Notes under the pieces: model-generated
The model's database searches: none
What the model was told of the DNA's origin: nothing
What the model saw: only the letters and a program-made list of their open reading frames with translations
Source of the DNA: Patescibacteria group bacterium
Lineage (GTDB): Bacteria; Patescibacteriota; Microgenomatia; UBA1400; MFAQ01
Assembly (NCBI GenBank): GCA_943355005.1
Contig: CALRDV010000002.1
Coordinates: 397 to 64,396, forward strand
Direction of reading: 5' to 3'
Length of the DNA: 64,000 nt
Program-made: the position numbers and the translations under genes
Part shown: one piece after another, positions 6,743-58,127 of the stretch
Position numbering within the stretch: the stretch's first letter is position 1
Layout: every line of letters starts with the position of its first letter

Positions 6743-7900
6743 TTATACAATTACCCCGCCACCCAAACACTCTCCGCCTTCTGTGTAGAATACTGCACTC
6801 TGTCCGGCCGCGATTCCTCGAATATCTTTATCCAGGATTATCGTCAGCCCATCTCCCATTTCCATCCCCCTTGCGCCAATTAATTCCCCACCATGACGAA
6901 TTCTCACCAAGAGATCATCCATATTCCATTTAGTTTTCGATATTTTATTTATCTCCCCCACCTCAAACTGATCCTCCATGGCGTCATCGGATTCTCCCAC
7001 CACCAATTCATTTTTTTTCGCATCTTTGGAAATCACATAAAATATTGGCGTCTCATTGTCATTGCGAGTTTCGTACTCGAACCGTGGCAATCCAGGAATT
7101 ATTTTATCCTTAGATAATTTTTTTTGAGCCGTTGGATTCATTACCCATCCACCTCTTTGTCCAATGGTATAGAACCACACTCCATCATGAGTTCCCACCT
7201 CATTTCCCTCGGTATCCAACACTTTTCCAACTTGCTTCTTTAATCTTCTGGCCAGAAATTCTTTCACTTCCACATTCCCTACGAAGCAAATTCCCTGACT
7301 ATCTTTGCGGTCGGCCACACTAAGCTTTGCTTCTTTAGCCAATTCTCGCACTTTACCCTTTTCAAAGTCTCCAAGGGGAAAAAGCACACGAGCCAGCTCT
7401 TTCTGAGTCAATTTCCATAGAAAATATGTTTGATCTTTATGTTTATCTTTCGGTATCAGAAGACGTCCCCCGGCCAGTTTTGCATAATGTCCTGTCGCAA
7501 TAAAGTCAAAGCCATTCTCCATCGCCCAGTCAAGGAAAAGTCCAAACTTAATCTCACTGTTACACAATACATCCGGGTTCGGAGTTCTCCCGGCTTCATA
7601 CTCCTCATAAAAATATTTAATCACTCTTTGGTTATATTCTTCGGAGAAATCCAAAACCTTAAAGGGAATTCCCAATTCCAAGCAAGTTTGCAAAGCCATC
7701 TGTCTATCCTCATCGGCTCTACAGCCATTTTTCTTTATCCATTCTTCCCTTGTAATACCATCTTTTTCAATCTCACTTTTCGGTGGCCAGCAATACAAGT
7801 GAACTCCAGTCACGTCATAACCCGCCTTTTTCAAAAGCAACGCACTTACGGCGCTATCCACGCCTCCGGAAATCCCTACAGCCACTTTTAATTGATTCAC
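6743..7900 (-). CDS. mnmA: tRNA-specific 2-thiouridylase MnmA (GTG start), carrying an in-frame type-B repeat insertion (peptide IIPGLPRFEYETRNDNETPIF).
   Basis: N-terminal PP-loop SGGVDS, conserved MnmA core, ORF uninterrupted through repeat 7058-7096. Confidence 0.85.
   Translation of the reverse strand: MNQLKVAVGISGGVDSAVSALLLKKAGYDVTGVHLYCWPPKSEIEKDGITREEWIKKNGCRADEDRQMALQTCLELGIPFKVLDFSEEYNQRVIKYFYEEYEAGRTPNPDVLCNSEIKFGLFLDWAMENGFDFIATGHYAKLAGGRLLIPKDKHKDQTYFLWKLTQKELARVLFPLGDFEKGKVRELAKEAKLSVADRKDSQGICFVGNVEVKEFLARRLKKQVGKVLDTEGNEVGTHDGVWFYTIGQRGGWVMNPTAQKKLSKDKIIPGLPRFEYETRNDNETPIFYVISKDAKKNELVVGESDDAMEDQFEVGEINKISKTKWNMDDLLVRIRHGGELIGARGMEMGDGLTIILDKDIRGIAAGQSAVFYTEGGECLGGGVIV
7058..7096. 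repeat. Type-B element inside mnmA (GTCATTGCGAGTTTCGTACTCGAACCGTGGCAATCCAGG).
   Basis: Repeat family member; translated in frame. Confidence 0.85.
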
Positions 7901-9360: not shown

Positions 9361-11061
9361 TCATTTAAAAATTTCCATATTTCTCTCACACAGCTCATAC
9401 CCCGGCCTCTGCACCAGGCACTCTTCAAACTTTTTCTTCGCCTCTTCCTTTTTTCCCGTCCAAGAATAATAAAGTCCCCAGTTATTTAGTAGCTCTGGAT
9501 ATTTCGGATATATTTCATCCGCTTTCTCCATAAATTTTTTGGCATTCTCCAAATCATTCTTCATCAGATATATCGCCGCCTTATTACTCTGCGCCATCAC
9601 ACTTCCTGTCGCCACCCCACCATCATGCAAAAACAGTCTCTCTTGAGACAACCAGTCCAAATTCCTGACAAATGTCCTCCCCGCCAACAAAAATAATATT
9701 GCAATAAATATCGGTGCAGAAGAATAGCCAAACAACCGCACGGACCATGTACATGAGAGCCGAAGGGGATCCCGCTTTTCAGCGGGACGAAACAGTAACG
9801 CGGGAGTACGGTTTTTGGCGGTCTTCGAACCGATTAACATTGCAATCATCACCACCCCCAAACTAGGCAAAAACCAAAGTCTCTCTCCAAATATAGTTCC
9901 AATCGGAAACAAAATATTCCCGGTAATCAATATCGGACCCCAAAACATCACCATCCCCACCATCGTCATTCCGAGCGACCTGCCCGCTGTGGCGGGAGTC
10001 GAGGAATCCCCCTCCACCCCATCAGTCATTCCGGGCTTGACCCGGAATCTATATAAATAAATACAACTTAATGCAATCATCACCAGCCCCACCACCACCC
10101 TCCAATCAGTCCAGCTCTCCACCAACTTAATTTGGTTATACGAATAGTCATAGCTAAGATTTATTGGAAAGAGAACTTTCCCGACTCCAAAAGGAATCAA
10201 AGCTATCCCGTTTATCATTCTTTTTTCCGCACTAACAAACTTAAGAGGATTCTCCACCATCGTCGCTCTTGTTTCCATTCCACCTCCACCCAGCACCAGT
10301 AGCCTCATCATCCCAAATCCCAACATTGCCATTATCACCAGTATCATCGCCGCTGTCTTTTCACTTGCGGAAGTTCCATTCGATGACTTGTCATTCCCGA
10401 CCTGATCGGGAATCCATCCGGAGACTCCACCACCTCTAATAAATATCAAATACATTAATATCACCACTCCCACCACCGCCGTCTCTTTCGACAGCATCGC
10501 CAAAAACAAAAATAACGCACTCACATCCCATCTATTCTTAAAGTTTTCCAGAATAGCCAAAAGCATAAATCCAAGTGAAAGCATCTCCGCCCTTCCCACG
10601 ATATTATTCACCACCTCGGTATGAATCGGCATCACCACAAACACCAACGCCCCCCAAAACGCCAACTTCTCTCGCCATTTGTCATTGCGAATCTCGTAGT
10701 CGAGCCCTGCCTGCCGGCAGGCAGGTGTGGCAATCCAGGAACCATCAAGAAACTTTCTCATCACCCCATACACCAGCCAACACACCCACGAATATAGCAG
10801 CACATTACCAAGCCGAAATCCCCAAGCCCCCTTACCGGTTATTAAAGAATTCAAATAGAAACTAAAGCTCGTCATCGGTCTATACAGAGATTTCTCCTGA
10901 TCCAAATAGTAGTACGGTCTCGTCCACACTTTTATCAAGCTTTCCACTCTTCCCATCCCCGGATCTCCCGCAATCACTTTTAGGTCGTCCTGCACAAATC
11001 CACCAAAAATACTCACAAAATACAAAGCAAACGCAGATAAGAAAATTACCCAACCCTTCAT
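9361..11061 (-). CDS. Multi-pass membrane GT-C-like glycosyltransferase with C-terminal TPR repeats (TMTC/PMT-like; DD motif in first loop). The ORF stays intact across five repeat-element insertions.
   Basis: N-terminal TM helices with FVQDDLKV motif, C-terminal TPR (AIYLMKNDLENAKKF...YYSWTGKKEEAKKKF); repeat-derived peptides LDYEIRNDK, WIPDQVGNDK, KPGMTDGVEGDSSTPATAGRSLGMT. Confidence 0.65.
   Translation of the reverse strand: MKGWVIFLSAFALYFVSIFGGFVQDDLKVIAGDPGMGRVESLIKVWTRPYYYLDQEKSLYRPMTSFSFYLNSLITGKGAWGFRLGNVLLYSWVCWLVYGVMRKFLDGSWIATPACRQAGLDYEIRNDKWREKLAFWGALVFVVMPIHTEVVNNIVGRAEMLSLGFMLLAILENFKNRWDVSALFLFLAMLSKETAVVGVVILMYLIFIRGGGVSGWIPDQVGNDKSSNGTSASEKTAAMILVIMAMLGFGMMRLLVLGGGGMETRATMVENPLKFVSAEKRMINGIALIPFGVGKVLFPINLSYDYSYNQIKLVESWTDWRVVVGLVMIALSCIYLYRFRVKPGMTDGVEGDSSTPATAGRSLGMTMVGMVMFWGPILITGNILFPIGTIFGERLWFLPSLGVVMIAMLIGSKTAKNRTPALLFRPAEKRDPLRLSCTWSVRLFGYSSAPIFIAILFLLAGRTFVRNLDWLSQERLFLHDGGVATGSVMAQSNKAAIYLMKNDLENAKKFMEKADEIYPKYPELLNNWGLYYSWTGKKEEAKKKFEECLVQRPGYELCERNMEIFK
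9713..9836. repeat. Copy A of an about 90-125 bp dispersed repeat (GGTGCAGAAGA.TAGCCAA....TTTTTGGCG.GGT.TTCGAACCGAT), in frame inside CDS 9361..11061.
   Basis: Aligns with 13960-14072 and, at the termini, with 49734-49822. Confidence 0.75.
9965..10009. repeat. Type-C element GTCATTCCGAGCGACCTGCCCGCTGTGGCGGGAGTCGAGGAATCC, in frame in a CDS.
   Basis: GTCATTCC...GGAATCC termini with internal palindrome. Confidence 0.8.
10025..10064. repeat. Type-A element plus TATATAAATAA extension, in frame in a CDS.
   Basis: GTCATTCCGGGCTTGACCCGGAATC followed by TATATAAATAA, as at 12944 and 15437. Confidence 0.8.
10390..10415. repeat. Type-A element GTCATTCCCGACCTGATCGGGAATCC, in frame in a CDS.
   Basis: Identical core to the copies at 12919, 15412 and 47065. 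Confidence 0.85.
10681..10739. repeat. Type-B element with a nested 20-bp perfect palindrome (CCTGCCTGCCGGCAGGCAGG), in frame in a CDS.
   Basis: Equals the 2513 copy plus an internal palindromic insertion. Confidence 0.8.
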
Positions 11062-11189
11062 CTCTTAATTGTAATCTGAAACAATCTACTTAAGGTTTCT
11101 GTTTCCTCGTCGCCATCCTCACCTGCTCTCCAAACTCGTTACTTTACTCTTATGCAACATACCCCAATGTAACATGAATTACATATTTG

Positions 11190-11639
11190 CTACTTAAAAA
11201 TTATTTTTTCAATTCCATTACCAAAAAGTTTGTCAACCGCCTCAATCCCCTCTGCTCTTATTCTACTTTCGGCTGTTTCAGTACCAAACTTAACCTCTTT
11301 AATTGCTAATTGAAATGCATCTGTATACACACTCATTAATCGCCTAAATTCATCTTCACCATATAATGCTTTTTTTTGCTTACCCCACTCTTGATCTACA
11401 ACACACGTTTCAGCATCGGTGAAATCTCCTTTAAAAAGCAATTCAGAGGCCTTATTAGCCTTATCAACTATTTGTTTACGAGTTTCGTCTTGCGGAAAAG
11501 AATCTGGGTGCATTATTCCAATACCTGCAAAAAACGCCTCTCTCACATCTCTTTTGCTACTAAAGTCGGGTGACGCAACAATTTCATCTTGAATCTGTTC
11601 CGCAATCCCTTTATTTTCTACAACTGCATCTAAAGCCAT
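11190..11639 (-). CDS. Hypothetical protein, 149 aa.
   Basis: ORF; shares an identical about 30-bp upstream leader with the next gene. Confidence 0.5.
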   Translation of the reverse strand: MALDAVVENKGIAEQIQDEIVASPDFSSKRDVREAFFAGIGIMHPDSFPQDETRKQIVDKANKASELLFKGDFTDAETCVVDQEWGKQKKALYGEDEFRRLMSVYTDAFQLAIKEVKFGTETAESRIRAEGIEAVDKLFGNGIEKIIFK

Positions 11640-11668
11640 ACAAAAATTCTACAACAAATTACATCAAT
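11640..11668 (-). promoter_or_regulatory. Duplicated leader/promoter (revcomp GATGTAATTTGTTGTAGAATTTTTGT immediately before ATG); TAGAAT -10-like motif 6-7 nt from the start codon.
   Basis: Near-identical copy at 11912-11940 in front of gene 11681..11911. Confidence 0.5.
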
Positions 11669-11680
11669 AAACAATTTTAT

Positions 11681-11911
11681 TTATCTTCTACCTTCCGGAC
11701 TGAATCCAGGTATAGCCTCAACACTGACACTTTTACCTTCTCTTCTAAGTTGTGCATCAACGCCTATTTGATTTTCTCTATCTAGCGCCCGTCTTTCTCG
11801 CACAGCAGCAGCATCTTCCCTTAATTTTTTCTCCCAAGGGCTTAAATCATTTAACGACGCCATTCTTTCTGCATATTCCTTACGCAATTGAATAGGTCCT
11901 TTTACAGTCAT
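11681..11911 (-). CDS. Small hypothetical protein, 76 aa, Arg/Glu-rich.
   Basis: ORF preceded by the duplicated leader. Confidence 0.45.
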   Translation of the reverse strand: MTVKGPIQLRKEYAERMASLNDLSPWEKKLREDAAAVRERRALDRENQIGVDAQLRREGKSVSVEAIPGFSPEGRR

Positions 11912-11940
11912 ACAAAAATTCTACAACAAATTACATCACT
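11912..11940 (-). promoter_or_regulatory. Second copy of the duplicated leader/promoter.
   Basis: Identical 28-30 nt to 11640-11668. Confidence 0.5.
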
Positions 11941-11969
11941 TACCTAATCAGATATCTGTCATCTGAGAC

Positions 11970-12923
11970 CTACCTCACCATCTCCCTCGCCACATTTATT
12001 TCCGGGAATGCTTTTTCAAACCACTTGAATTGTGCAGTTCTATTCACTTCAAAGATTCTCCACTGCTTAGCCTCTTCATCCCAAGCCACATCCAGCCCTG
12101 CAAAATCAGCCTTAAGAACTTTCGTTGCCTCGACACTTAGTCTTTGCAATTCTGCCATCTGCTCTTTACTAAACTTCGGTTTAATTTTCGATAGCTCTTC
12201 CTGCTGAGATAGCACTTGGAACTTATCTTTTTGTCTGTGTTTCATCATCCCCAATATCTCTCCATTTAGCACCAACACTCTATACCATCTTCGTACTTTC
12301 AAAACAGGCTGAATCAAGACGTCTCCCTCACTATATTTCTGAGAAAGTTTTACCAGGCGGGTCAGTGATTCTGCTAGTTTCACATTTTTTCCATGAGATC
12401 CAAATCTCGCCTTGACCATTACCGGCACAAATTCTCCTTTCCGTTTAGATAGTATTTCCAAATATCTTTTCCATCCTCTAGCCCCACGGAAAGATACAAA
12501 CGGAATTACCGGTAGTCCCGCTTCAGCCAGCAATATTCCTTGTTCAAGTTTCCCCATAAGTGGAAACATCTTAAAGCTTTCCCCATTGATCACAGAAATA
12601 TCTCTCTCTGAATTTTTCGTTTGCTCCAAGAACTCCAAAATCACCGACTTCACCCCTAGCATACTTTCCCCACCTCTTTTAGTCGCGGCTCTCGGGATAA
12701 TCAAATCATATTCACTCAGTTTTTTTCCGGTTCCCAAATCTACAATTGGCTTACCCATCTTGCTTACACCAATTCGCACATGTTCATAGTTCACCTTATC
12801 CACGGAATATCCCAAATTACTCGCCTCTTCGGCTAATCTCTTGGGTTCATACTCCCCTCTAAATCTAGTCAATATTAATATCTTTTTCATTACTTTTCTT
12901 GATGTCGTCTTAATATCTGTCAT
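11970..12923 (-). CDS. ATP-grasp ligase, RimK/alpha-L-glutamate-ligase-like. The true start may be the internal ATG at 12890 (MKKILIL); the extreme N-terminus of the track ORF overlaps a repeat element.
   Basis: ATP-grasp signature regions (…EFVPVMVKARFGSHGKNV…, …FAGLDVAWDEE…WRIFEVN); about 300 aa. Confidence 0.7.
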   Translation of the reverse strand: MTDIKTTSRKVMKKILILTRFRGEYEPKRLAEEASNLGYSVDKVNYEHVRIGVSKMGKPIVDLGTGKKLSEYDLIIPRAATKRGGESMLGVKSVILEFLEQTKNSERDISVINGESFKMFPLMGKLEQGILLAEAGLPVIPFVSFRGARGWKRYLEILSKRKGEFVPVMVKARFGSHGKNVKLAESLTRLVKLSQKYSEGDVLIQPVLKVRRWYRVLVLNGEILGMMKHRQKDKFQVLSQQEELSKIKPKFSKEQMAELQRLSVEATKVLKADFAGLDVAWDEEAKQWRIFEVNRTAQFKWFEKAFPEINVAREMVR

Positions 12924-12958
12924 TCCCGACCTGATCGGGAATCTATATAAATAATTCC
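12919..12958. repeat. Type-A element plus TATATAAATAATTC extension.
   Basis: GTCATTCCCGACCTGATCGGGAATC TATATAAATAATTC. Confidence 0.85.
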
Positions 12959-12974
12959 TTAATTTGATTTTTAA

Positions 12975-13000
12975 TTTTTTGGCGCGGTTCGAACCGATAA
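12975..13000. repeat. Partial copy (3' terminus) of the long repeat: TTTTTTGGCGCGGTTCGAACCGATAA.
   Basis: 25/25 identity to 14047-14071. Confidence 0.7.
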
Positions 13001-13013
13001 AATATTTTGAATA

Positions 13014-13922
13014 TCATTTTGAAAATTTCTTCACACAATACTCAAGTATTAATCTCGCTGCATTGGTTTTAGTCCTCTTCTCAAACACTTTAAATTGCGG
13101 CGCCTCATTCACTTCAATTATGTAAACTTTTCCGGTTTTGGAGTCTCTCACCAAATCTGTTCCCGCCACTTCTACCCCCAGCACTTGAGCCGCTCTCTCT
13201 GCCGTCTCCACCACATCGCTTGGCAGTTCCACCACCATCGATTTACCCTGACTGCGATTCAAGATTAGCTTCTCTTCTTTTACTTGTCTCTTAAAACCTC
13301 CAATGCATTTATAGCCCACTGTCATCAACCTAAAGTCTCCATCATTTCGAATATATTCCTGAATCAAAAATCCCCTAAAAATTGGCATTTTCTTATTTTC
13401 TGCTTTTGCCTTTTCTTTTCTGTTTTCCAATACATGTTTTAGTTTTTCCAGATCACTCAGTTCTCTCACCCAAAAAGTGCCCATGCCATGCCTTCCCCCG
13501 GCCGAAAGTTTAACAATCGCTGGAAGTTCCCAATTTTTAAGTTCCCTTTCCAGATCCTTAAAGGTTTCTACGTAAGCAGATTTAGGATAAAGCACCCCGG
13601 CATCCAGCAGTTGCCAAGTCATCACAGATTTAAATCGTCTCAAGGGTCCTTCGGTTTTCAAATATTCATCTACCGCCGGGATATTATGTTTACGTGCATA
13701 AAGTTGCAGTAGTTTGCTCCATTCCAGTTCAGATCCCACAGACCGGAAGTACCAGCCATCGAAATCTCTCATATCGGTTTCTCCAAACATAATTCTGTCA
13801 CCTACCACCCGAAGTTTTCTGTACTTTACAGGCACCAGTTCAATCCCCAAATCCACCGCCTCCTCCTGGAATCTTTTTTCACTTTCATCAAACGTCAATC
13901 TATGTAGGTATGCTATTTTCAT
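13014..13922 (-). CDS. ATP-grasp ligase, RimK-like (second paralog).
   Basis: ATP-grasp motifs (…AIVKLSAGGRHGMG…, …VAGTDLVRD…YIIEVN); 302 aa. Confidence 0.7.
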   Translation of the reverse strand: MKIAYLHRLTFDESEKRFQEEAVDLGIELVPVKYRKLRVVGDRIMFGETDMRDFDGWYFRSVGSELEWSKLLQLYARKHNIPAVDEYLKTEGPLRRFKSVMTWQLLDAGVLYPKSAYVETFKDLERELKNWELPAIVKLSAGGRHGMGTFWVRELSDLEKLKHVLENRKEKAKAENKKMPIFRGFLIQEYIRNDGDFRLMTVGYKCIGGFKRQVKEEKLILNRSQGKSMVVELPSDVVETAERAAQVLGVEVAGTDLVRDSKTGKVYIIEVNEAPQFKVFEKRTKTNAARLILEYCVKKFSK

Positions 13923-13959
13923 CTCAGTTAATTAAATCATTATTAAAACATCTTTGAAG

Positions 13960-14072
13960 GTGCAGAAGACTAGCCAACAAACCGCACGGAAGCTGTACAT
14001 AGGAGCCGAAGGGAATCCCACTATTGCGGGACGAGATAGTTACGAGTGAGTACGGTTTTTGGCGCGGTTCGA
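13960..14072. repeat. Copy B of the long dispersed repeat (intergenic).
   Basis: Collinear with 9713-9836, with the same termini. Confidence 0.75.
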
Positions 14073-14095
14073 ACCGATAAGAAGTTTTCATATTT

Positions 14096-15400
14096 TTATT
14101 TTCTAATCTTTACGAGCCCTGGATCCACCACAAACTCTCTCAGGTCACGGCGCCCAATTAATAATTGTCTTCTCAAGTTTTTACGGTCAGTCACATTAGC
14201 TCTGGTTTTGATTATTCTCCCCTTAAGTTTTATTGTTAAGGCGATCAAAGATCTTTCTTCTATCCCCAAAGAATTTTTTACTTTCTTAGTCCACAGAATA
14301 TTGTCCGCAGTTAACAAACCCAGCTCTTTAGCCATCTGTGCATCAATAGAAGTACTCTTTGCCCCCGTATCAATTTTGGCCCGAATTTCTATCATCTTTT
14401 TTTTGCCATTTCTTACACTTACATTCTCAAATATCCCAATTACCGGCTTCTCTTCTCCTGTAAATTTTACCCGGCTGGCAAACTTACTAGCAAACAAAGC
14501 CTTTCCAATCTTCACACCTTTGATGGCATCATCCACTTCAAGCCCCTCAACTCTCTCCAATCTTCTCCTGAGTCCTGTCATATTAGCGAGTTGGATAGAG
14601 AGTCCAGGCTGGTCATTCAATTCCAGCACCACCGGTCCTTTTTCCTCATCAATCAGCATATCCACCGAAAGATAATTAAGCTTCGAAATCATTTGAGTTT
14701 CCACTGCCATTCTCAAAATCTGATTCCAGTAAGGTACCGAAATTCCATTCACTTTTATATTAGTGTCCGGGAAAAGTTTTACTGAAGTATTTTTGTAAAC
14801 CCCATGAGTAGTAATTCCTGTAGCCATATCAATTCCCAAGCCAATAGCCCCTTGATGAAGGTTGGCTTTTCCATTGCTTTCATCGGTCGGCAGCCTTAGC
14901 ATCGCCATCACCGGGATTTTGTTATAGACAATCACTCGAACATCGGGAGCACCTCCCACCGCGAGCTTCTTAAACTTCGGATGAATCTTAATCCTCTCCT
15001 CTATCATCGCCTTATCCGGCAGATTATTATGAGAGAATTTTCCCTCGGCAATATCCTGAGAATGTAATGTTAAATCATCGGCAGTGAGATATTTACCATC
15101 GACAGTCAGGAACAATCCCTTTTCTTTTGCGGGCTTTTTTATAAGAAGAATACCTTGACCACCAAATCCCTGAACCGGCTTGATAGCAAAACCATCTGTC
15201 AACTTAGTCCAATTAAAAGCTCTTGCTTCGTTAACATTATGAATAATTCCCAATAACCTAGGATGCCCAACATTAGCTTTCTTGAGCATTTTCTTAGTCA
15301 AAAGCTTATCATCGGCCTTTTGACGAGCATTCTTCTTATTAAAAGAAAGATAATCTGCCGATCTGGCGTTTAGTCCTAATATGTCATTAAATCTTGGCAT
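14096..15400 (-). CDS. Alpha-L-glutamate-ligase-like ATP-grasp domain fused to a C-terminal retropepsin-like putative ATP-dependent Zn-protease domain (PF05618-like, RAKIDTGAKSTSID).
   Basis: N-terminal ATP-grasp (…FAIKPVQGFGGQGILLI…, LELNDQPG); C-terminal about 140 aa with a DTGA aspartyl-protease-like motif; 434 aa. Confidence 0.65.
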   Translation of the reverse strand: MPRFNDILGLNARSADYLSFNKKNARQKADDKLLTKKMLKKANVGHPRLLGIIHNVNEARAFNWTKLTDGFAIKPVQGFGGQGILLIKKPAKEKGLFLTVDGKYLTADDLTLHSQDIAEGKFSHNNLPDKAMIEERIKIHPKFKKLAVGGAPDVRVIVYNKIPVMAMLRLPTDESNGKANLHQGAIGLGIDMATGITTHGVYKNTSVKLFPDTNIKVNGISVPYWNQILRMAVETQMISKLNYLSVDMLIDEEKGPVVLELNDQPGLSIQLANMTGLRRRLERVEGLEVDDAIKGVKIGKALFASKFASRVKFTGEEKPVIGIFENVSVRNGKKKMIEIRAKIDTGAKSTSIDAQMAKELGLLTADNILWTKKVKNSLGIEERSLIALTIKLKGRIIKTRANVTDRKNLRRQLLIGRRDLREFVVDPGLVKIRK

Positions 15401-15411
15401 TATTTTTCATT

Positions 15412-15450
15412 GTCATTCCCGACCTGATCGGGAATCTATACAAATAATTC
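15412..15450. repeat. Type-A element plus TATACAAATAATTC extension.
   Basis: GTCATTCCCGACCTGATCGGGAATC TATACAAATAATTC. Confidence 0.85.
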
Positions 15451-15451
15451 A

Positions 15452-16318
15452 TTATTTATTCAATAATTTCCGGAATCTCCAAATTTCTGATAATCTCAAA
15501 CCTTTGTATTTTCCAATCAAAATATCTACCACCAGTATCAAAATTACGGAAATTTCCGGCTGTAACAATACTTGTGTCTGTATCCAAGGAGAACTTATTA
15601 GTTTGTAAGCAATAAAAGCCAAAACTACAGTTTCAAGCGTCATGGAGACAGAAGTAGCCAAACTTCTGGTAATCTGTGCTTCGACAAAAGTTTCAGCCAA
15701 AAGTACAAAGATCATAATTGGGAAAATACCGACAGTCATCAATTTATCGAGTCCTATCATTGGCGACATGATTAAAAGTGCCAAAACAGCAATGGAAATC
15801 AGCCAAATCAAAACCGCCAGTTTAGGTAAATATGGAATCTTTATCTTCTTAATAGCCATACGTCCAAACACTGCTGCCAAAAGAATAAAAGATAGCAAAA
15901 CTAGTCCCACTACTCCACCGGTAGAAACAAAGGCCACCGAAAGTAAAGCTGGCACAATCATTCCAAAGCCACTCACACCTACCACCTGCCTCGAAAATGC
16001 CACCAAGGCTGCGACCAAAGGAAACAGGAATAAAAGCACCAAAGTGTTAGGAGAAACCCCGTCAGCCACAGCTTTTCTAATGGCGAGCTTCAAGGTGTTA
16101 CTCACCCACCAGCCGGTAACCTTTTGAGTCTTCATCAGTTTAACCAATCTATCTCCCTCTTCTTTAGGTACGGTTAAATCAATATCTGAAGGTGTTGGAG
16201 TGGCCGAAACCAAAGCTGTTGGGGAGATTACAGGCACGACAGTTTTTTCCACAGCAAAAGTTCCGAAAGGAAGAGCTAAAAACAGGAGTATTGCCAGAAA
16301 CATCGCTACTTTTTTCAT
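15452..16318 (-). CDS. Signal-peptide plus about 7-TM membrane protein. Possible partner of the ATP-grasp/Zn-protease system.
   Basis: N-terminal signal sequence, multiple hydrophobic helices; immediately upstream of and co-oriented with the ATP-grasp genes. Confidence 0.5.
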   Translation of the reverse strand: MKKVAMFLAILLFLALPFGTFAVEKTVVPVISPTALVSATPTPSDIDLTVPKEEGDRLVKLMKTQKVTGWWVSNTLKLAIRKAVADGVSPNTLVLLFLFPLVAALVAFSRQVVGVSGFGMIVPALLSVAFVSTGGVVGLVLLSFILLAAVFGRMAIKKIKIPYLPKLAVLIWLISIAVLALLIMSPMIGLDKLMTVGIFPIMIFVLLAETFVEAQITRSLATSVSMTLETVVLAFIAYKLISSPWIQTQVLLQPEISVILILVVDILIGKYKGLRLSEIWRFRKLLNK

Positions 16319-19638: not shown

Positions 19639-22092
19639 TCAGGCAACCACAAAGTTAATTGTTTTTCCTTTAATATAAATTATCTTTTTAATTTCTCCAG
19701 CCAATAAATATTTCTCCAATTTTTCAATCTTCTTAACTGTATCTACAACAGCTTCCTCAGAGGCATCATTCTCCACTTCTATTGTCTCTCTCATTTTTCC
19801 ATTTATTTGGACAGAAATAGTTATCACATCGGTCATCAAATATTTTTCCTCAAATTTCGGAAATTCTTGAGCATGGACACTAAACTCTCCACCCAATAAA
19901 TTCCAAAGTTCTTCTGTTACAAAAGGAGCAAACGGAGCCAGCACCTTTACGACTCTGCCCAAATCTTCACTGCTTACCTCCGCTCCACTACGAAGCAACG
20001 CGTTTGTTGTCTCCATTAGTTTCGCAATTACTGTGTTGAACTTAAATTGAGACAAATCTTCTCCAGCACCTTTTATTAATTTATGAATCAACCTGGAACT
20101 CTCCAAGTCGGTAACCACATACTTTCCGGCGTTCTCAGTCACAAGCCTAAATATTTTCTCGATAAATCTTCTAACGCCCACCAGTGATCTTTCATTCCAC
20201 GCCATAGTCGAATCAAATGGTCCCATAAACATCATGTAGGTCCTCAGGACGTCCGCTCCGTAGGTTTCGGCCACTACATCGGGTACGATTACATTCCCCT
20301 TACTTTTACTCATTCTGTTGCCATCTGGTCCCAGCAGTACCCCATGAGACAGTCTCTTTTTATATGGCTCAGGATAAATTTTTGGCACCACCCCCAAGTC
20401 CCACAAGAACTGATAGATAAATCTTGAATAAAGTAAATGCAAAGTGTTATGTTCATCTCCACCCACATAGACATCCACCGGCATCCAGTACTCCATTTTT
20501 TCTTGACTGGCTAACATTTCTCTATTTTTTGGGTCACAATATCGAAGAAAATACCAGTCACTTCCGGCCCAGTTTGGCATCGTGTCGGTTTCTCTTTTTG
20601 CTTTTCCACCACAATTCGGACAAGTCGTCTCGACCCATTCTTTTATATTGGCGAGTGGTGACTCTCCTGTGTCGGTCGGCTGGTACTTCTCGACCTCCGG
20701 CAAAACCACTGGCAAATCTTTTTCTGGAACTGGTATCCACGACCCTGTCATTCCGGGCTTGACCCGGAATCCATCCCCCTCCGGTACACAATTCTCACAC
20801 CAGATCATCGGAATGGGCTCCCCCCAATAATGCTGTCTAGAAAAAATCCAATCCCTTAAGTGGTATGTCACTGCTTTTTCTCCAAAGCCCTTTTCTTCTA
20901 TAAGACTGATTATCAAATCATCCGGCACAAATTCAGAATCTATCGGCAAATTATATTTATCGGCAAAAGCCTTATCCCTATCATCGTGTGCTGGCACCGC
21001 CATAATCGCTCCGGTTCCGTAACCCATGAGAACATAATCACTTATCCAAATTGGAATTTCTTTATTGTTAAGCGGATTTACGGCATAAATTCCCGTAAAG
21101 ACGCCTGTCTTCGCTCTGGTGTCATCAGTTCGCTCAATCTCACTCCTCCCCTTCACCTCATCAAGGTATCTTTTAATGTCATTCCTGGCTTGACCAGGAA
21201 TCCATCCAATTAATTCCGAATTCTCCATCAAATGCTTCACCATCGGATGCTCCGGAGCCAATACCAAGAAAGTTGCCCCCGGTAAAGTATCCGGTCTCGA
21301 AGTAAACACCTCAAGAATATCAGTTTCACTCTTCCTCCCTGTCATTCCGGGCTTGACCCGGAATCCATCTGGAGTTTTTATTTCAAATTTTATCTTTGCC
21401 CCCTCTTTCTTCCCTATCCAATTAACCTGTGCCGCCTTAACTTTTTCGATAAAATCAGTATCTTTCAAACCTTCGAGCAATCGATCTGCATAATCCGTGA
21501 TTTTCACTACCCATTGTGAGATAGTTCTCTTTTCCGTTTCAGATCCGCATCTTTCACATTTACCATCAATCACCTCTTCATTAGCCAAACCAATTTTATC
21601 TTTGGGGCACCAATTAATCGGCATCTCTTCTTTATGAGCCAATCCTTTTTCAAAAAGTTTTACAAATATCCATTGCGTCCATTTGTAGTAGTCCGGCATT
21701 GTTGAGTTCACTTCTCTATCCCAATCAAAAGAAAATCCCAGTTTCCTCATCTGCATCCGGAAATTGTCAGTCACTTCTTTGGTTATTTCTTTTGGATTTT
21801 TTCCGCTCTTTATCGCATAGTTCTCCGTTGGAAGCCCGAATGCGTCCCATCCCATGGGGAACATCACATTTTTTCCCATCATCCTTTGGTATCGGGCATA
21901 GACATCGGCTCCAGTCATAGCAAACCCATGTCCCACATGTAGCCCGCTTCCGGATGGATAAGGAAACTCGGTCAGCATATAGAATTTTTGTTTATCTGCT
22001 TCAAAGTCCAGACCTTTATAGCCGGCAAAACCGTCATACTTACCTATCCACTTCTTCTCAATTTCCTTAAAATCATAGCTTGCCATACGCAT
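19639..22092 (-). CDS. leuS: Leucyl-tRNA synthetase with three in-frame type-A repeat insertions. The likely start is MRMASYDF (ATG at 22092 or 22086); the track ORF start at 22110 is the SD translated.
   Basis: Class I HMGH/KMSKS motifs (…PSGSGLHVGHGF…, …KMSKSKGN…), conserved LeuRS N-terminus YDFKEIEKKW; inserts GFRVKPGMTGRKSE, WIPGQARNDIKR, GFRVKPGMTGSWIP. Confidence 0.9.
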   Translation of the reverse strand: MRMASYDFKEIEKKWIGKYDGFAGYKGLDFEADKQKFYMLTEFPYPSGSGLHVGHGFAMTGADVYARYQRMMGKNVMFPMGWDAFGLPTENYAIKSGKNPKEITKEVTDNFRMQMRKLGFSFDWDREVNSTMPDYYKWTQWIFVKLFEKGLAHKEEMPINWCPKDKIGLANEEVIDGKCERCGSETEKRTISQWVVKITDYADRLLEGLKDTDFIEKVKAAQVNWIGKKEGAKIKFEIKTPDGFRVKPGMTGRKSETDILEVFTSRPDTLPGATFLVLAPEHPMVKHLMENSELIGWIPGQARNDIKRYLDEVKGRSEIERTDDTRAKTGVFTGIYAVNPLNNKEIPIWISDYVLMGYGTGAIMAVPAHDDRDKAFADKYNLPIDSEFVPDDLIISLIEEKGFGEKAVTYHLRDWIFSRQHYWGEPIPMIWCENCVPEGDGFRVKPGMTGSWIPVPEKDLPVVLPEVEKYQPTDTGESPLANIKEWVETTCPNCGGKAKRETDTMPNWAGSDWYFLRYCDPKNREMLASQEKMEYWMPVDVYVGGDEHNTLHLLYSRFIYQFLWDLGVVPKIYPEPYKKRLSHGVLLGPDGNRMSKSKGNVIVPDVVAETYGADVLRTYMMFMGPFDSTMAWNERSLVGVRRFIEKIFRLVTENAGKYVVTDLESSRLIHKLIKGAGEDLSQFKFNTVIAKLMETTNALLRSGAEVSSEDLGRVVKVLAPFAPFVTEELWNLLGGEFSVHAQEFPKFEEKYLMTDVITISVQINGKMRETIEVENDASEEAVVDTVKKIEKLEKYLLAGEIKKIIYIKGKTINFVVA
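20747..20772. repeat. Type-A element inside leuS.
   Basis: GTCATTCCGGGCTTGACCCGGAATCC; translated as PGMTG... on the minus strand. Confidence 0.85.
21178..21203. repeat. Type-A element inside leuS.
   Basis: GTCATTCCTGGCTTGACCAGGAATCC; translated WIPGQARND. Confidence 0.85.
21341..21366. repeat. Type-A element inside leuS.
   Basis: GTCATTCCGGGCTTGACCCGGAATCC. Confidence 0.85.
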
Positions 22093-31695: not shown

Positions 31696-31711
31696 ACTTA
31701 CACCAACCTAT

Positions 31712-31737
31712 GTCATTCCTGGCTTGACCAGGAATCC
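31712..31737. repeat. Type-A element between aspS and glyQS.
   Basis: GTCATTCCTGGCTTGACCAGGAATCC. Confidence 0.85.
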
Positions 31738-31760
31738 ATTCAATAAATACTACTAAAAAA

Positions 31761-47047: not shown

Positions 47048-47064
47048 ATCAAATAAACTCCAAT

Positions 47065-47090
47065 GTCATTCCCGACCTGATCGGGAATCC
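47065..47090. repeat. Type-A element GTCATTCCCGACCTGATCGGGAATCC.
   Basis: Identical to the 10390 copy. Confidence 0.85.
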
Positions 47091-47117
47091 ATATGGAACA
47101 TTTTATCAATTTTAGAT

Positions 47118-47137
47118 AGTTGGCGGGCTTCGAAACA
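47118..47137. repeat. Partial long-repeat terminus (TTGGCGGGCTTCGAAACAAG).
   Basis: Matches the GGCG.GG.TTCGAAC 3' terminus of copies A-C. Confidence 0.5.
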
Positions 47138-48430: not shown

Positions 48431-49696
48431 TTAAATAATTCTGTTATTAACCTCATTAATAACTTTCTCGGCAAACCCCTCGAGTGTCATGACACCCAAA
48501 TCTTTTTGACCTCTTTGTCTCACCGATACTTGACCACTTTCGGCTTCTTTTTCACCGATGATTAGCATGTAAGGCACTTTCGACGCCTCAGCATTTCTAA
48601 TCTTCTTCCCTAGAGAATCAGCGTCCATGTTCAATTCCACCCTTATCCCCTTAGATTTAAGTTCTTTTACTATTTTTTGCGAATACTCCATCGTTTTTTC
48701 CGAAATAGGCAACACAGCCACTTGGAAAGGTGATAGCCACACCGGAAGCGCCCCATTAAAGTGCTCGAGTAGAAAGGCTGCAATCCTTTCAACTGCACCA
48801 ATGCTGGACCTGTGAATCACTAAAGGCAATTTTTCTTCTCCATCCTTATCCACATATTTCAGATCAAATCTCGTCGGCATGACGAAGTCATACTGAACTG
48901 TAAAGGCCGTTTCTTCTGCTCCATTAATTTTCTTCATCTGGATATCTATCTTGGGACCATAGAAAGCCGCTTCCCCTTCTGCTTCCACAAAAGCACTCTT
49001 TCTTTCATTCAAGACTTCACGCAAGATTCCCTCTGATTTATCCCAGGATTTATCATCATCAAAATATTTTTTCTTGTCATTTCTATCTCCCAAAGACAGT
49101 CTATAAGAATAATCCTCACCCATCTTAAGTCCAAATATTCCAGCCATGTACTCAATCAGTTCCAGTGCGTGAGCAATTTCCGATTTTGCCTGGACTTCAT
49201 CAGCACAGATAATATGTGCGTCTGCCAAACAAAAACTTCTTACTCGAGTAAGTCCTGTAAGCACTCCGGAAAGTTCATAACGATATAGTTTCGCCATCTC
49301 AGCAATTCGCATAGGCAGTTCGCGGTAGCTTCTTGGTTTAGACAGATAAAGTTCAAAGTGATGAGGGCAAGTCATAGGACGAAGCATAAATTCTTCATCA
49401 TCCACTTGTATCGGCGCATACATTGTCTCTTTGTAATAAGGATAATGTCCAGATTTCTTATATAAATCCAGTTTGGCAATATCAGGCGTATACACATGTT
49501 GGTAGCCCCACTCGATTTCCGTATCCACGACAAACCTCTCCAGTTCACGTCGGAAAGTGGCACCTTTAGCCGTCCAAAGTGGCAAACCTTTCCCCACCGT
49601 CTCTGAGAAAGTAAACAAATCCAGTTCCCGACCAATTACCCTATGATCTCTTGGATCTAGATTTTCTTCAACAATGTTTTTATTTTTATCTTCCAT
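48431..49696 (-). CDS. thrS: Threonyl-tRNA synthetase, minimal form (catalytic and anticodon-binding domains only; no N-terminal TGS or editing domains).
   Basis: …RDHRVIGRELDLF…, class II core, C-terminal anticodon-binding domain; 421 aa. Confidence 0.8.
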   Translation of the reverse strand: MEDKNKNIVEENLDPRDHRVIGRELDLFTFSETVGKGLPLWTAKGATFRRELERFVVDTEIEWGYQHVYTPDIAKLDLYKKSGHYPYYKETMYAPIQVDDEEFMLRPMTCPHHFELYLSKPRSYRELPMRIAEMAKLYRYELSGVLTGLTRVRSFCLADAHIICADEVQAKSEIAHALELIEYMAGIFGLKMGEDYSYRLSLGDRNDKKKYFDDDKSWDKSEGILREVLNERKSAFVEAEGEAAFYGPKIDIQMKKINGAEETAFTVQYDFVMPTRFDLKYVDKDGEEKLPLVIHRSSIGAVERIAAFLLEHFNGALPVWLSPFQVAVLPISEKTMEYSQKIVKELKSKGIRVELNMDADSLGKKIRNAEASKVPYMLIIGEKEAESGQVSVRQRGQKDLGVMTLEGFAEKVINEVNNRII

Positions 49697-49733
49697 TTTT
49701 CTTTATATTTTAATAAAAATTTAAATCGTGATA

Positions 49734-49822
49734 GGTGCAGAAGACTAGCCAAAATCGAGCGCAGGGATGCCCCCGTACTCGGAGCGAGCCGAGCACTGAT
49801 TTTGACGGGCTTCGAACCAAAC
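49734..49822. repeat. Copy C of the long dispersed repeat (conserved termini, divergent middle), upstream of thrS.
   Basis: 5' GGTGCAGAAGACTAGCCAA and 3' GGGCTTCGAACC match copies A and B. Confidence 0.65.
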
Positions 49823-50002
49823 GATTTTAATTTGCAAAACAAAAAACTACCTTAACATTTGCAGGACCCCGCCTCGTTGGCGGGGGGTTCCATCCTGCTT
49901 GCTGGTAGCCGACTTAATTAGAGCTCTGGCGCTCATTTCCTGTTCCTCCGGGTTGGTAGCCCATCACCGAAACAATTTACTTCTAATTCTATTCTACCAC
50001 TA

Positions 50003-58044: not shown

Positions 58045-58080
58045 CTTTTTATCATACTAGAATTTTTTATGCCAAATTTA

Positions 58081-58127
58081 GTCATTCCGGGCTTGAATCG
58101 GCCGCTGGTACCCGAAGGGGTGAATCC
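58081..58127. repeat. Type-A element with internal insertion (GTCATTCCGGGCTTGAATCGGCCGCTGGTACCCGAAGGGGTGAATCC). It supplies the C-terminal codons and the stop of the upstream CDS.
   Basis: Family termini; overlaps the 3' end of ORF 58082..58432. Confidence 0.75.

Follow-up and report, generated by a model that had tools for sequence, protein, structure and literature searches.

A strand-polar family of hairpin-forming repeats, probably mobile DNA, in operon spacers and genes of Collierbacteria-like genomes

The window analysed here is a stretch of 64,000 nucleotides (nt) from a Patescibacteria group bacterium (assembly GCA_943355005.1; contig CALRDV010000002.1, positions 397 to 64,396 of the forward strand). 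It belongs to a 255-kb metagenome contig (ENA ERZ27280309) and has a bacterial 16S gene and a G+C content of ~41%, and its proteins are 77–85% identical to those of element-bearing metagenome-assembled genomes (MAGs) of Candidatus Collierbacteria. A cluster of genes for a 7TM-transglutaminase, three ATP-grasp proteins, a TMTC-like glycosyltransferase, a hypothetical protein, and MnmA bears copies of a dispersed repeat, hereafter the long element, and a further copy lies between lysS and thrS. Each copy, a unit of ~115–190 bp, forms one long imperfect hairpin. The long element is a real repeat family that, to our knowledge, was previously undescribed, and no published account of such a family in Collierbacteria, Patescibacteria, or the candidate phyla radiation (CPR) was found in the literature on repeats, palindromic elements, and miniature transposable elements with inverted repeats (MITEs). 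We describe its structure, distribution, and polarity, which together point to a probable mobile DNA element.

The first-pass annotation of the window had proposed a dispersed repeat with conserved termini and a variable interior, and three full copies of it were recovered both by matches to the terminal blocks and by a covariance model, with boundaries that differ slightly from those first proposed (Table 1, which gives the conserved core and the full hairpin including the AT-rich outer arms). In the window, the 5′ block GGTGCAGAAGAMTAGCCAA is present three times (positions 9713, 13959, and 49734), always on the plus strand, where ~0.04 occurrences are expected and none of 100 shuffles reaches three; the 3′ block occurs four times (9813, 12977, 14057, and 49800; 0.07 expected). 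The covariance model (R1), run over the full window with filters off, found exactly three full copies, scoring 111 bits (E 2e-30), 103 bits (E 5e-28), and 74 bits (E 2e-19) for copies 1, 2, and 3, respectively. The same stretches are paired in a repeat search of the window (families D7, D8, D11, and D14), and no further copies were present in an additional 10 kb of the same contig. The fold of copy 1 covers its full hairpin with a z-score of −5.3, and the flanks of the three copies are unrelated to each other. As first described, copy 1 lies in frame inside a gene, where it encodes ...IGSKTAKNRTPALLFRPAEKRDPLRLSCTWSVRLFGYSSAPI..., and the other two lie 20–60 nt upstream of start codons: the core of copy 2 is placed 20 nt past the upstream stop codon and 36 nt ahead of the ATP-grasp start codon (13922), and that of copy 3 is placed 37 nt ahead of the thrS start codon (49696). 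The ThrRS encoded downstream of copy 3 has 421 residues and is devoid of the N-terminal part of the profile, the enzymes of related genomes having 597–599 residues.

The two partial copies, initially listed as 3′ fragments, were also recovered, with unequal clarity. The remnant at site 2 is identical to copy 2 over 25 nt and gives a marginal signal only with the covariance model (12971–13006), and the one downstream of tyrS is weaker (nhmmer E 0.09), with ~17 of its 18 bases fitting the usual 5′ arm by eye. In both of these 5′-arm-only remnants, a 47-nt short element (12918–12964 and 47064–47110) lies ~10–35 nt beyond the break, which suggests that the remnants arose via truncation by, or recombination with, this short element.

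Table 1. Long-element copies, neighbouring genes, and other palindromic families (window coordinates unless a related locus is named)
Feature	Position	Core	Strand	Description
Copy 1	9698..9846	9713–9831	−	Full hairpin, long interior type; in frame within the TMTC-like glycosyltransferase coding sequence
Copy 2	13945..14088	13959–14075	−	Long type, variant 5′ arm GGTTCGAACCGCGCC; spacer between two ATP-grasp genes (site 1)
Copy 3	49717..49833	49734–49818	−	Short interior, CUCCG-AGUA-CGGGG apex hairpin; between lysS and thrS
Remnant	12976..13000		−	5′ arm only (GGTTCGAACCGCGCCAAAAA and left outer arm); spacer between second and third ATP-grasp genes (site 2)
Weaker remnant	47120..47137		−	5′ arm GTTTCGAAGCCCGCCAA; downstream of tyrS
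mnmA	6743..7900		−	Site empty of the long element; loop GHYAKL-AGGR-LLIPKDKHKDQ
TMTC/DUF1736-type membrane glycosyltransferase coding sequence	9361..11061		−	C-terminal TPR repeats (Pfam); hosts copy 1 and several short-element insertions, all in frame
RimK-like ATP-grasp gene	13014..13922		−	Directly downstream of copy 2
ATPgrasp_ST gene	14096..15400		−	Directly upstream of copy 2
thrS	48431..49696		−	Downstream of copy 3; TIGR00418, E 7e-148, profile positions 165–564
TGTCATTCC family	2470–2502, 10021–10053, 10386–10435, 12915–12964, 15408–15457, 20743–20775, 21174–21223, 21337–21386, 31708–31757, 47061–47110, 58080–58101			Short family
TTGTCATTGCGA family	2511–2555, 7056–7100, 10679–10723			Second short family
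Third palindromic family	L139:6760–6960, L138:8010–8170, L136:8195–8350			~160–170 nt, UAUGAGUACAUA apex

The anatomy of the long element was read on the minus strand of the window, which is G-rich and here coincides with the coding strand. The conserved termini, GGTTCGAAG...CTTCTGCACC, form terminal inverted repeats, in which the left end GGTGCAGAAGACTAGCCAA and the reverse-complemented right end GGTTCGAAGCCCGCCAA agree at ~15 of 19 positions by eye. The outer arms beyond them are AT-rich and ~12–17 nt long, and differ from site to site but are complementary within each, the mean duplex energy of the flanks being −7.4 kcal/mol for left and right arms of the same site versus −3.6 kcal/mol for arms combined across sites (p 2e-6); by eye, motifs recur at several sites, roughly AAATATCTTATC in the left arm and TTCAAAGATATTT in the right. 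The foot of the hairpin is conserved and asymmetric, with GGUUCG pairing to CUGCACC around a fixed U/C mismatch and a bulged U. Inward of the foot are a short covarying stem (GAAG/CUUC), an internal loop, and a second stem of 13–14 bp (GCCAAAAACCGUAC/GUGCGGUUUGUUGGC) with a bulged G and a U·G pair kept in 25 of the 27 distinct copies collected from the window and related sequences. The interior occurs in at least three forms (two short types with cores of 83–89 nt, a long type of 113–123 nt, and a 165-nt form containing an additional module) and is a mosaic of interchangeable hairpin modules, in which a G-AGUA-C apex is common. In 10 of the 27 copies, G–C closes the AGUA loop of an apical hairpin, whose stem covaries (CCUG/CAGG, CAUG/CAUG, CUCG/CGAG, CUCCG/CGGGG, and CCUGG/CCGGG).

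The structure is conserved with compensatory changes across the 27 copies. Pairing is seen in 86% of the cells of the 26 modelled stem pairs, versus 33–44% when the partners are slid by 1–3 columns; changes on both sides occur in 18 of the 26 pairs; and the 68 double-change cells exceed those of all 500 shuffles (22.7 ± 3.6). These figures come from an alignment fitted to the structure, which favours pairing, and an independent MAFFT alignment gives the same picture of covariation. Compensation is also visible within single genomes and types: the three paralogous copies of L135 (L-numbers are labels of related genome and metagenome loci compared with the window) have GGGG/CCCC, GUAG/CUAC, and GGCG/CGCC where others have GAAG/CUUC, and AUGUGC/GCGCAU replaces CCGUAC/GUGCGG in the second of the short types (short-B). 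Apart from the conserved U·G pair, G·U and A·C mismatches are balanced (9 versus 12), and the data therefore do not tell RNA from DNA, or which RNA strand would be folded.

The 27 copies occupy 10 independent sites, and the presence of copies in many related genomes is at odds with a segmental duplication confined to a few places. A scan of species-representative genomes with the 5′ block yielded true copies in six Collierbacteria MAGs and in three contigs labelled as Pseudomonadales, the remaining matches being chance 17-mers, and 22 of 24 matches in a metagenome scan were true copies. In both scans, the full-element matches are Collierbacteria MAGs or contigs syntenic with them. L115 (on the same contig as the viral match L144) and L120 contain a 19-mer without the rest of the element, and were rejected as copies. 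The three contigs labelled 'uncultured Pseudomonadales' (L056, L070, and L105) carry the long element; the ThrRS of L070 and L105 is 80–82% identical to that of a Collierbacteria MAG, L056 has the sufT–rpiB arrangement seen in Collierbacteria loci, and all three look like mis-binned or mislabelled CPR contigs. No similarity to the long element was found by BLAST in phage, plasmid, or 5,426 Escherichia coli genomes, which do carry enterobacterial repetitive intergenic consensus (ERIC) and repetitive extragenic palindromic (REP) sequences; two scans of viral contigs returned chance k-mer matches only, with no copy there by the covariance model. No Rfam family was matched at the gathering threshold in the whole window, or at E ≤ 10 in 9500–14300, and an intrinsic-terminator scan found none at the long elements.

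Comparison of orthologous loci reveals gain, loss, and turnover at five sites. Site 1, the spacer between ATP-grasp genes A and B, is filled in the window, L023/L133, and L033, and empty in L111, L118, L135, L136, and L141. Site 2, between ATP-grasp genes B and C, is filled in L111, L118, and L135, holds the 25-nt remnant in the window, and is empty in L133 and L033. The site in the TMTC-like coding sequence is filled in the window, L111, L135, L136, and L141, and empty in L137 and other more distant homologs, and that in mnmA is filled in L033, L118, L135, L136, and L141, degraded in L133, and empty in the window and L137. The fifth site, upstream of thrS, holds the element in six genomes (the window, L070, L080, L105, L116, and L128), with three different interiors. 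Empty site 1 spacers often have just 2–4 nt from stop to start codon; the outer arms, which are missing from most empty sites, hence came along with the element. Elements are also replaced in place: flanking coding sequences of L136 and L141 are 90% identical and both copies have the derived termini GTTTCG...CTGCAAC, while the element between these termini is only 58% identical and of different type and length, which shows that overwriting of the interior does happen. The 87-nt core at site 1 of L023 is 100% identical to the core of L128 at the thrS site.

The copies inside genes are placed in loop-coding regions of two unrelated enzymes. In the TMTC-like protein, the element adds ~42 residues between two hydrophobic segments, where element-free homologs have a loop of ~7 residues; among 341 homologs, the closest carry the insert, and four more distant ones that were aligned (55–59% identity) are without it. 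In MnmA, the insert follows the conserved GHYAKL motif, between two profile-matched blocks. The reading frame is open through the element in all 10 copies within coding sequences (five TMTC and five MnmA orthologs). The five TMTC orthologs read the 5′ arm in frames 2, 2, 0, 1, and 0, i.e. in all three frames, and the insert peptides are unrelated (GSKTAKNRTPALL..., FGVHKNRTSAQL..., FRTTINCGARL..., and FEVRQIPYSRVTVSS...); peptides predicted for copies in coding sequences also include GSKTAKNRTPALLFRPAEK. Since the same element is read in different frames, it is the DNA that was inherited or replaced, and the peptide would be a tolerated passenger. As judged from the sequences, the copies are most likely translated and not spliced out, because a spliced element need not keep its frame. 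A small ribozyme or intron was considered and rejected, as no conserved catalytic core was seen and the copies in coding sequences keep the frame open.

The long element is strictly oriented with respect to the base composition of the DNA strands. The G-rich strand carries the element in the same form at each of the 10 independent sites (flank skew +0.12 to +0.36), for which the probability under random orientation is ~0.002. In the window, all copies have the same orientation relative to the adjacent genes, as noted at first pass; this does not hold in general, and polarity follows the G-rich strand instead. At three sites, the adjacent genes are on the opposite strand, namely L117 (between two such genes, one encoding an EamA-type transporter), L122 (inside an arsR–YHS/copM/copA operon), and L126 (upstream of an HMA gene), so that a rule of 'sense to transcription' is broken there. 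The skew itself follows the DNA strand irrespective of coding direction, its sign being kept in opposite-strand genes: across window positions 1–64000, the GC skew is strong and uniform (−0.07 to −0.43), plus-strand genes included. This agrees with the one-sided G/C disparity reported over the entire chromosome of Collierbacteria, which was taken as a sign of largely unidirectional replication (PMC7143001). A precedent for such polarity is found in the insertion sequence (IS) family IS200/IS605, in which insertion follows the lagging-strand template (PMC5027513).

Based on these observations, we consider it probable that the long element represents a family of mobile DNA elements, hairpin-forming (imperfectly palindromic) and non-autonomous, that is confined to Collierbacteria-like CPR bacteria. 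Its copies land in operon spacers that are very short and in loop-coding segments of genes, and within genes they survive only as open, in-frame insertions, most likely translated as passenger peptides. It may move or be recognised as a single-stranded DNA (ssDNA) hairpin on the strand exposed by replication, a step suggested by its polarity, by termini that are structured and asymmetric, and by the absence of a clear target duplication. The conserved asymmetric foot looks like a recognition site, the mobilising enzyme would be encoded elsewhere, and any effects on host mRNA processing or stability would be side effects.

Several observations weigh against this assignment. In ~444 kb of related DNA, part of it redundant, no transposase, HUH, or Y1 gene was found: tblastn with approximate query sequences for IS608 TnpA and E. 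coli RAYT (REP-associated tyrosine transposase) gave nothing below E 3, and the precomputed Pfam lists of L001, L135–L141, and L150 show no such domains. The copy number is low, with three copies in ~74 kb of the window contig and one exact 17-mer only in the complete 1.09 Mb genome MFAS01000001. Comparison of filled and empty sites gave no unambiguous target-site duplication in the AT-rich, inverted-complementary flanks; an apparent direct repeat, ATGAAAA, was seen once, at site 1, where the sequence is A-rich, and the left flank shows a loose preference for ...ATC only. The argument from the replication strand rests on three discriminating sites only, and as the skew never flips in these genomes (PMC7143001), the polarity could reflect another property tied to the strand. 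Finally, the arms at the TMTC site are 94–97% identical among orthologs, versus 61–72% for the flanking coding sequences. Such conservation, together with per-copy compensation, would be unexpected in a resident copy that is purely selfish, unless palindrome-templated mutation or gene conversion operates: either the hairpin matters to the host, or the copies are overwritten by conversion or corrected by palindrome-templated mutation. The mnmA copies of L033 and L118, for comparison, are 56% identical versus 75–80% for their flanks.

One form of the first horn of this dilemma is a host-beneficial, cis-acting RNA hairpin in operon mRNAs, acting in processing, stability, or decoupling of translation and kept by selection on RNA structure, in line with the leader-RNA idea raised at first pass; such roles have been proposed for REP/BIME, ERIC, and Correia hairpins, which are cut by RNase III/E. 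Although this is the alternative that we take most seriously, we regard it as unlikely, and the leader-RNA idea is not supported. It would explain why two window copies end 36–37 nt ahead of start codons in operon spacers, with similar spacing in other genomes, why orthologous sites are conserved across 50–60% protein identity with compensatory changes in each copy, why one U·G pair is so highly conserved on the gene-sense strand, and why the arms at the TMTC site outlast their surroundings. It fits poorly with the element being antisense to its neighbours at L117, L122, and L126, with copies within coding sequences of two unrelated enzymes, and with the presence or absence of the element among close relatives at every site examined; moreover, apart from the single conserved U·G, the mismatch balance favours no RNA strand, and a different palindromic family occupies the same spacers in other genomes.

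The second horn, taken alone, would make the copies decaying relics of one old burst, the arms being kept symmetric by quasi-palindrome-templated strand switching or gene conversion, without selection or mobility. The interior swap between L136 and L141 with retained derived termini does look like conversion, the mnmA copies of L033 and L118 diverge faster than their flanks, and the mnmA insert of L133 is degraded. Nevertheless, we regard a mutational artefact of this kind as quite unlikely, for identical 87-nt cores occupy distinct sites on contigs that come from separate samples and have neighbour proteins ~80% identical, the filled and empty states of sites 1 and 2 are not nested in a simple order, and the uniform polarity has to be accounted for when the copies inserted.

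Polarity on the G-rich strand at every site, compensation in both arms without a bias for an RNA strand, and the conserved mismatch-and-bulge motif at the terminus are what would be expected if the hairpin were a DNA-level replication signal of the host, lying on the lagging-strand template as, for example, a priming or fork-related site. This seems very unlikely in view of the patchy distribution and low copy number, of sites that are empty or hold unrelated palindromic families, and of interiors replaced between close relatives, and placement inside genes would be odd for a host signal. A tRNA-derived or tRNA-like element mimicking the T-arm, or a segmental duplication of a leader, prompted by the resemblance of GGTTCGAA to a T-loop and by three copies within 64 kb, can be dismissed as extremely improbable: ARAGORN finds no tRNA or tmRNA gene in the window and Rfam nothing even at E ≤ 10, no 5-bp stem encloses a 7-nt loop at the motif, the T-arm-like palindrome GGTTCGAACC noted at first is a minority variant (most copies have GGCTTCGAACC) whose resemblance is superficial, and duplication is contradicted by the unrelated flanks and by the 27 distinct copies, which are spread over 10 sites and many genomes.

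The long element, read as a non-autonomous mobile element, falls among the bacterial interspersed palindromic elements, an established class, with traits that are unusual in combination, and each of the four groups considered below has some of its features and lacks others. Rickettsia palindromic elements (RPEs) are palindromic repeats whose host proteins tolerate the extra peptide (PMC10969869). Both are palindromes of ~100–150 bp in a small-genome bacterium and occur in non-coding DNA as well as in frame in unrelated housekeeping genes, here those of the TMTC-like protein and MnmA. RPEs are described with a conserved peptide (PMC10969869), whereas the present element is read in all three frames, lies in CPR/Patescibacteria, and shows strict strand polarity and swapping of interior modules; given its Collierbacteria-like host, and with no sequence relation to RPEs expected, it is taken as an RPE analogue, not an RPE member. 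REPINs have inverted conserved ends and a less conserved spacer, and form a long hairpin in ssDNA or mRNA with common compensatory changes (PMC3116915). Conserved ends, a variable spacer, a compensated hairpin, and a non-autonomous nature are features in common, but REPINs are extragenic and present in tens to hundreds of copies, unlike the few copies here, some of which are in coding sequences; each REPIN end holds a small REP palindrome, whereas the arms of the long element are not themselves hairpins; and REPINs flank a single-copy RAYT gene, no match to which was found in the 444 kb of related DNA with the approximate queries.

With IS200/IS605, the long element has in common a polarity tied to the lagging strand (PMC5027513), structured ends with specific mismatches, and no obvious target duplication. 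The ends of these insertion sequences are separate subterminal hairpins, whereas those of the long element pair together; they insert 3′ of a fixed tetra- or pentanucleotide, whereas the left flanks here vary; and neither TnpA nor TnpB was found in the related DNA. Elements of the ERIC, Correia, and MITE type are likewise imperfect palindromes of 100–200 bp in transcribed intergenic regions near genes, with occasional intragenic copies and RNase-accessible hairpins (PMC10969869). The likeness to MITEs extends to a short length without a transposase gene, dispersed copies, and terminal inverted repeats; no TA duplication was established for the long element. ERIC also has size variants that result from internal insertions. 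We know of no parent IS with the same ends, and no autonomous IS with these ends is present in the window or the compared loci. Two other systems were tried and rejected: a template or variable repeat of a diversity-generating retroelement, as differences between copies are not confined to adenines (by eye), and an integron attC site, as the ends are GGTTCGA.../...CTGCACC and not RYYYAAC/GTTRRRY and the copies lie in conserved operons and coding sequences, with no cassette arrays.

Other palindromic families are present in the same genomes. The short family TGTCATTCC-N12-GGAATC has at least 11 copies in the window, all in one orientation, two of which (10024–10045 and 10389–10435) are in frame in the TMTC-like coding sequence, with the peptides ...VKPGMTD... 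and ...WIPDQVGNDK.... A second short family, TTGTCATTGCGA...GGCAATCC, has the minus-strand apex CGAGTACG, which is common to many long elements; one of its window copies is in frame in mnmA (IPGLPRFEYETRNDN) and another in the TMTC-like gene (the second and third entries in Table 1). The third family fills sites 1 and 2 in genomes without the long element there, and the ATP-grasp spacers seem to be a hot spot shared by several hairpin families. In L135 (19857–21548), two closely spaced LAGLIDADG homing-endonuclease open reading frames, possibly associated with an rRNA intron, were also observed. A more far-reaching proposal, which we put forward tentatively and hold to be doubtful, is that Collierbacteria carry a new kind of strand-polar ssDNA mobile element recognised as a hairpin by a possibly new enzyme, that structure-level selection or templated repair keeps the hairpins foldable even in essential genes, and that one machinery serves the 45-nt, long, and ~170-nt families with their common G-AGTA-C apex on the same strand.

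CPR genomes are streamlined, at ~1 Mb, and the group is commonly regarded as poor in mobile DNA. In the present case, the long family and at least two other palindromic families have colonised narrow spacers within operons as well as genes encoding conserved enzymes, in parallel to the 'selfish DNA in protein-coding genes' of Rickettsia. For annotation, repeats may be the source of odd peptides and of length variation in CPR proteins; for protein evolution, loop insertions are tolerated, and the reading frame of the element shifts between orthologs. The polarity on the G-rich strand, combined with the replication proposed to run largely in one direction, offers a clean natural system for studying hairpin movement via ssDNA at the fork. 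If the proposal of a shared machinery were true, one recognition machinery would lie behind a set of gene-invading palindromes in genomes of ~1 Mb.

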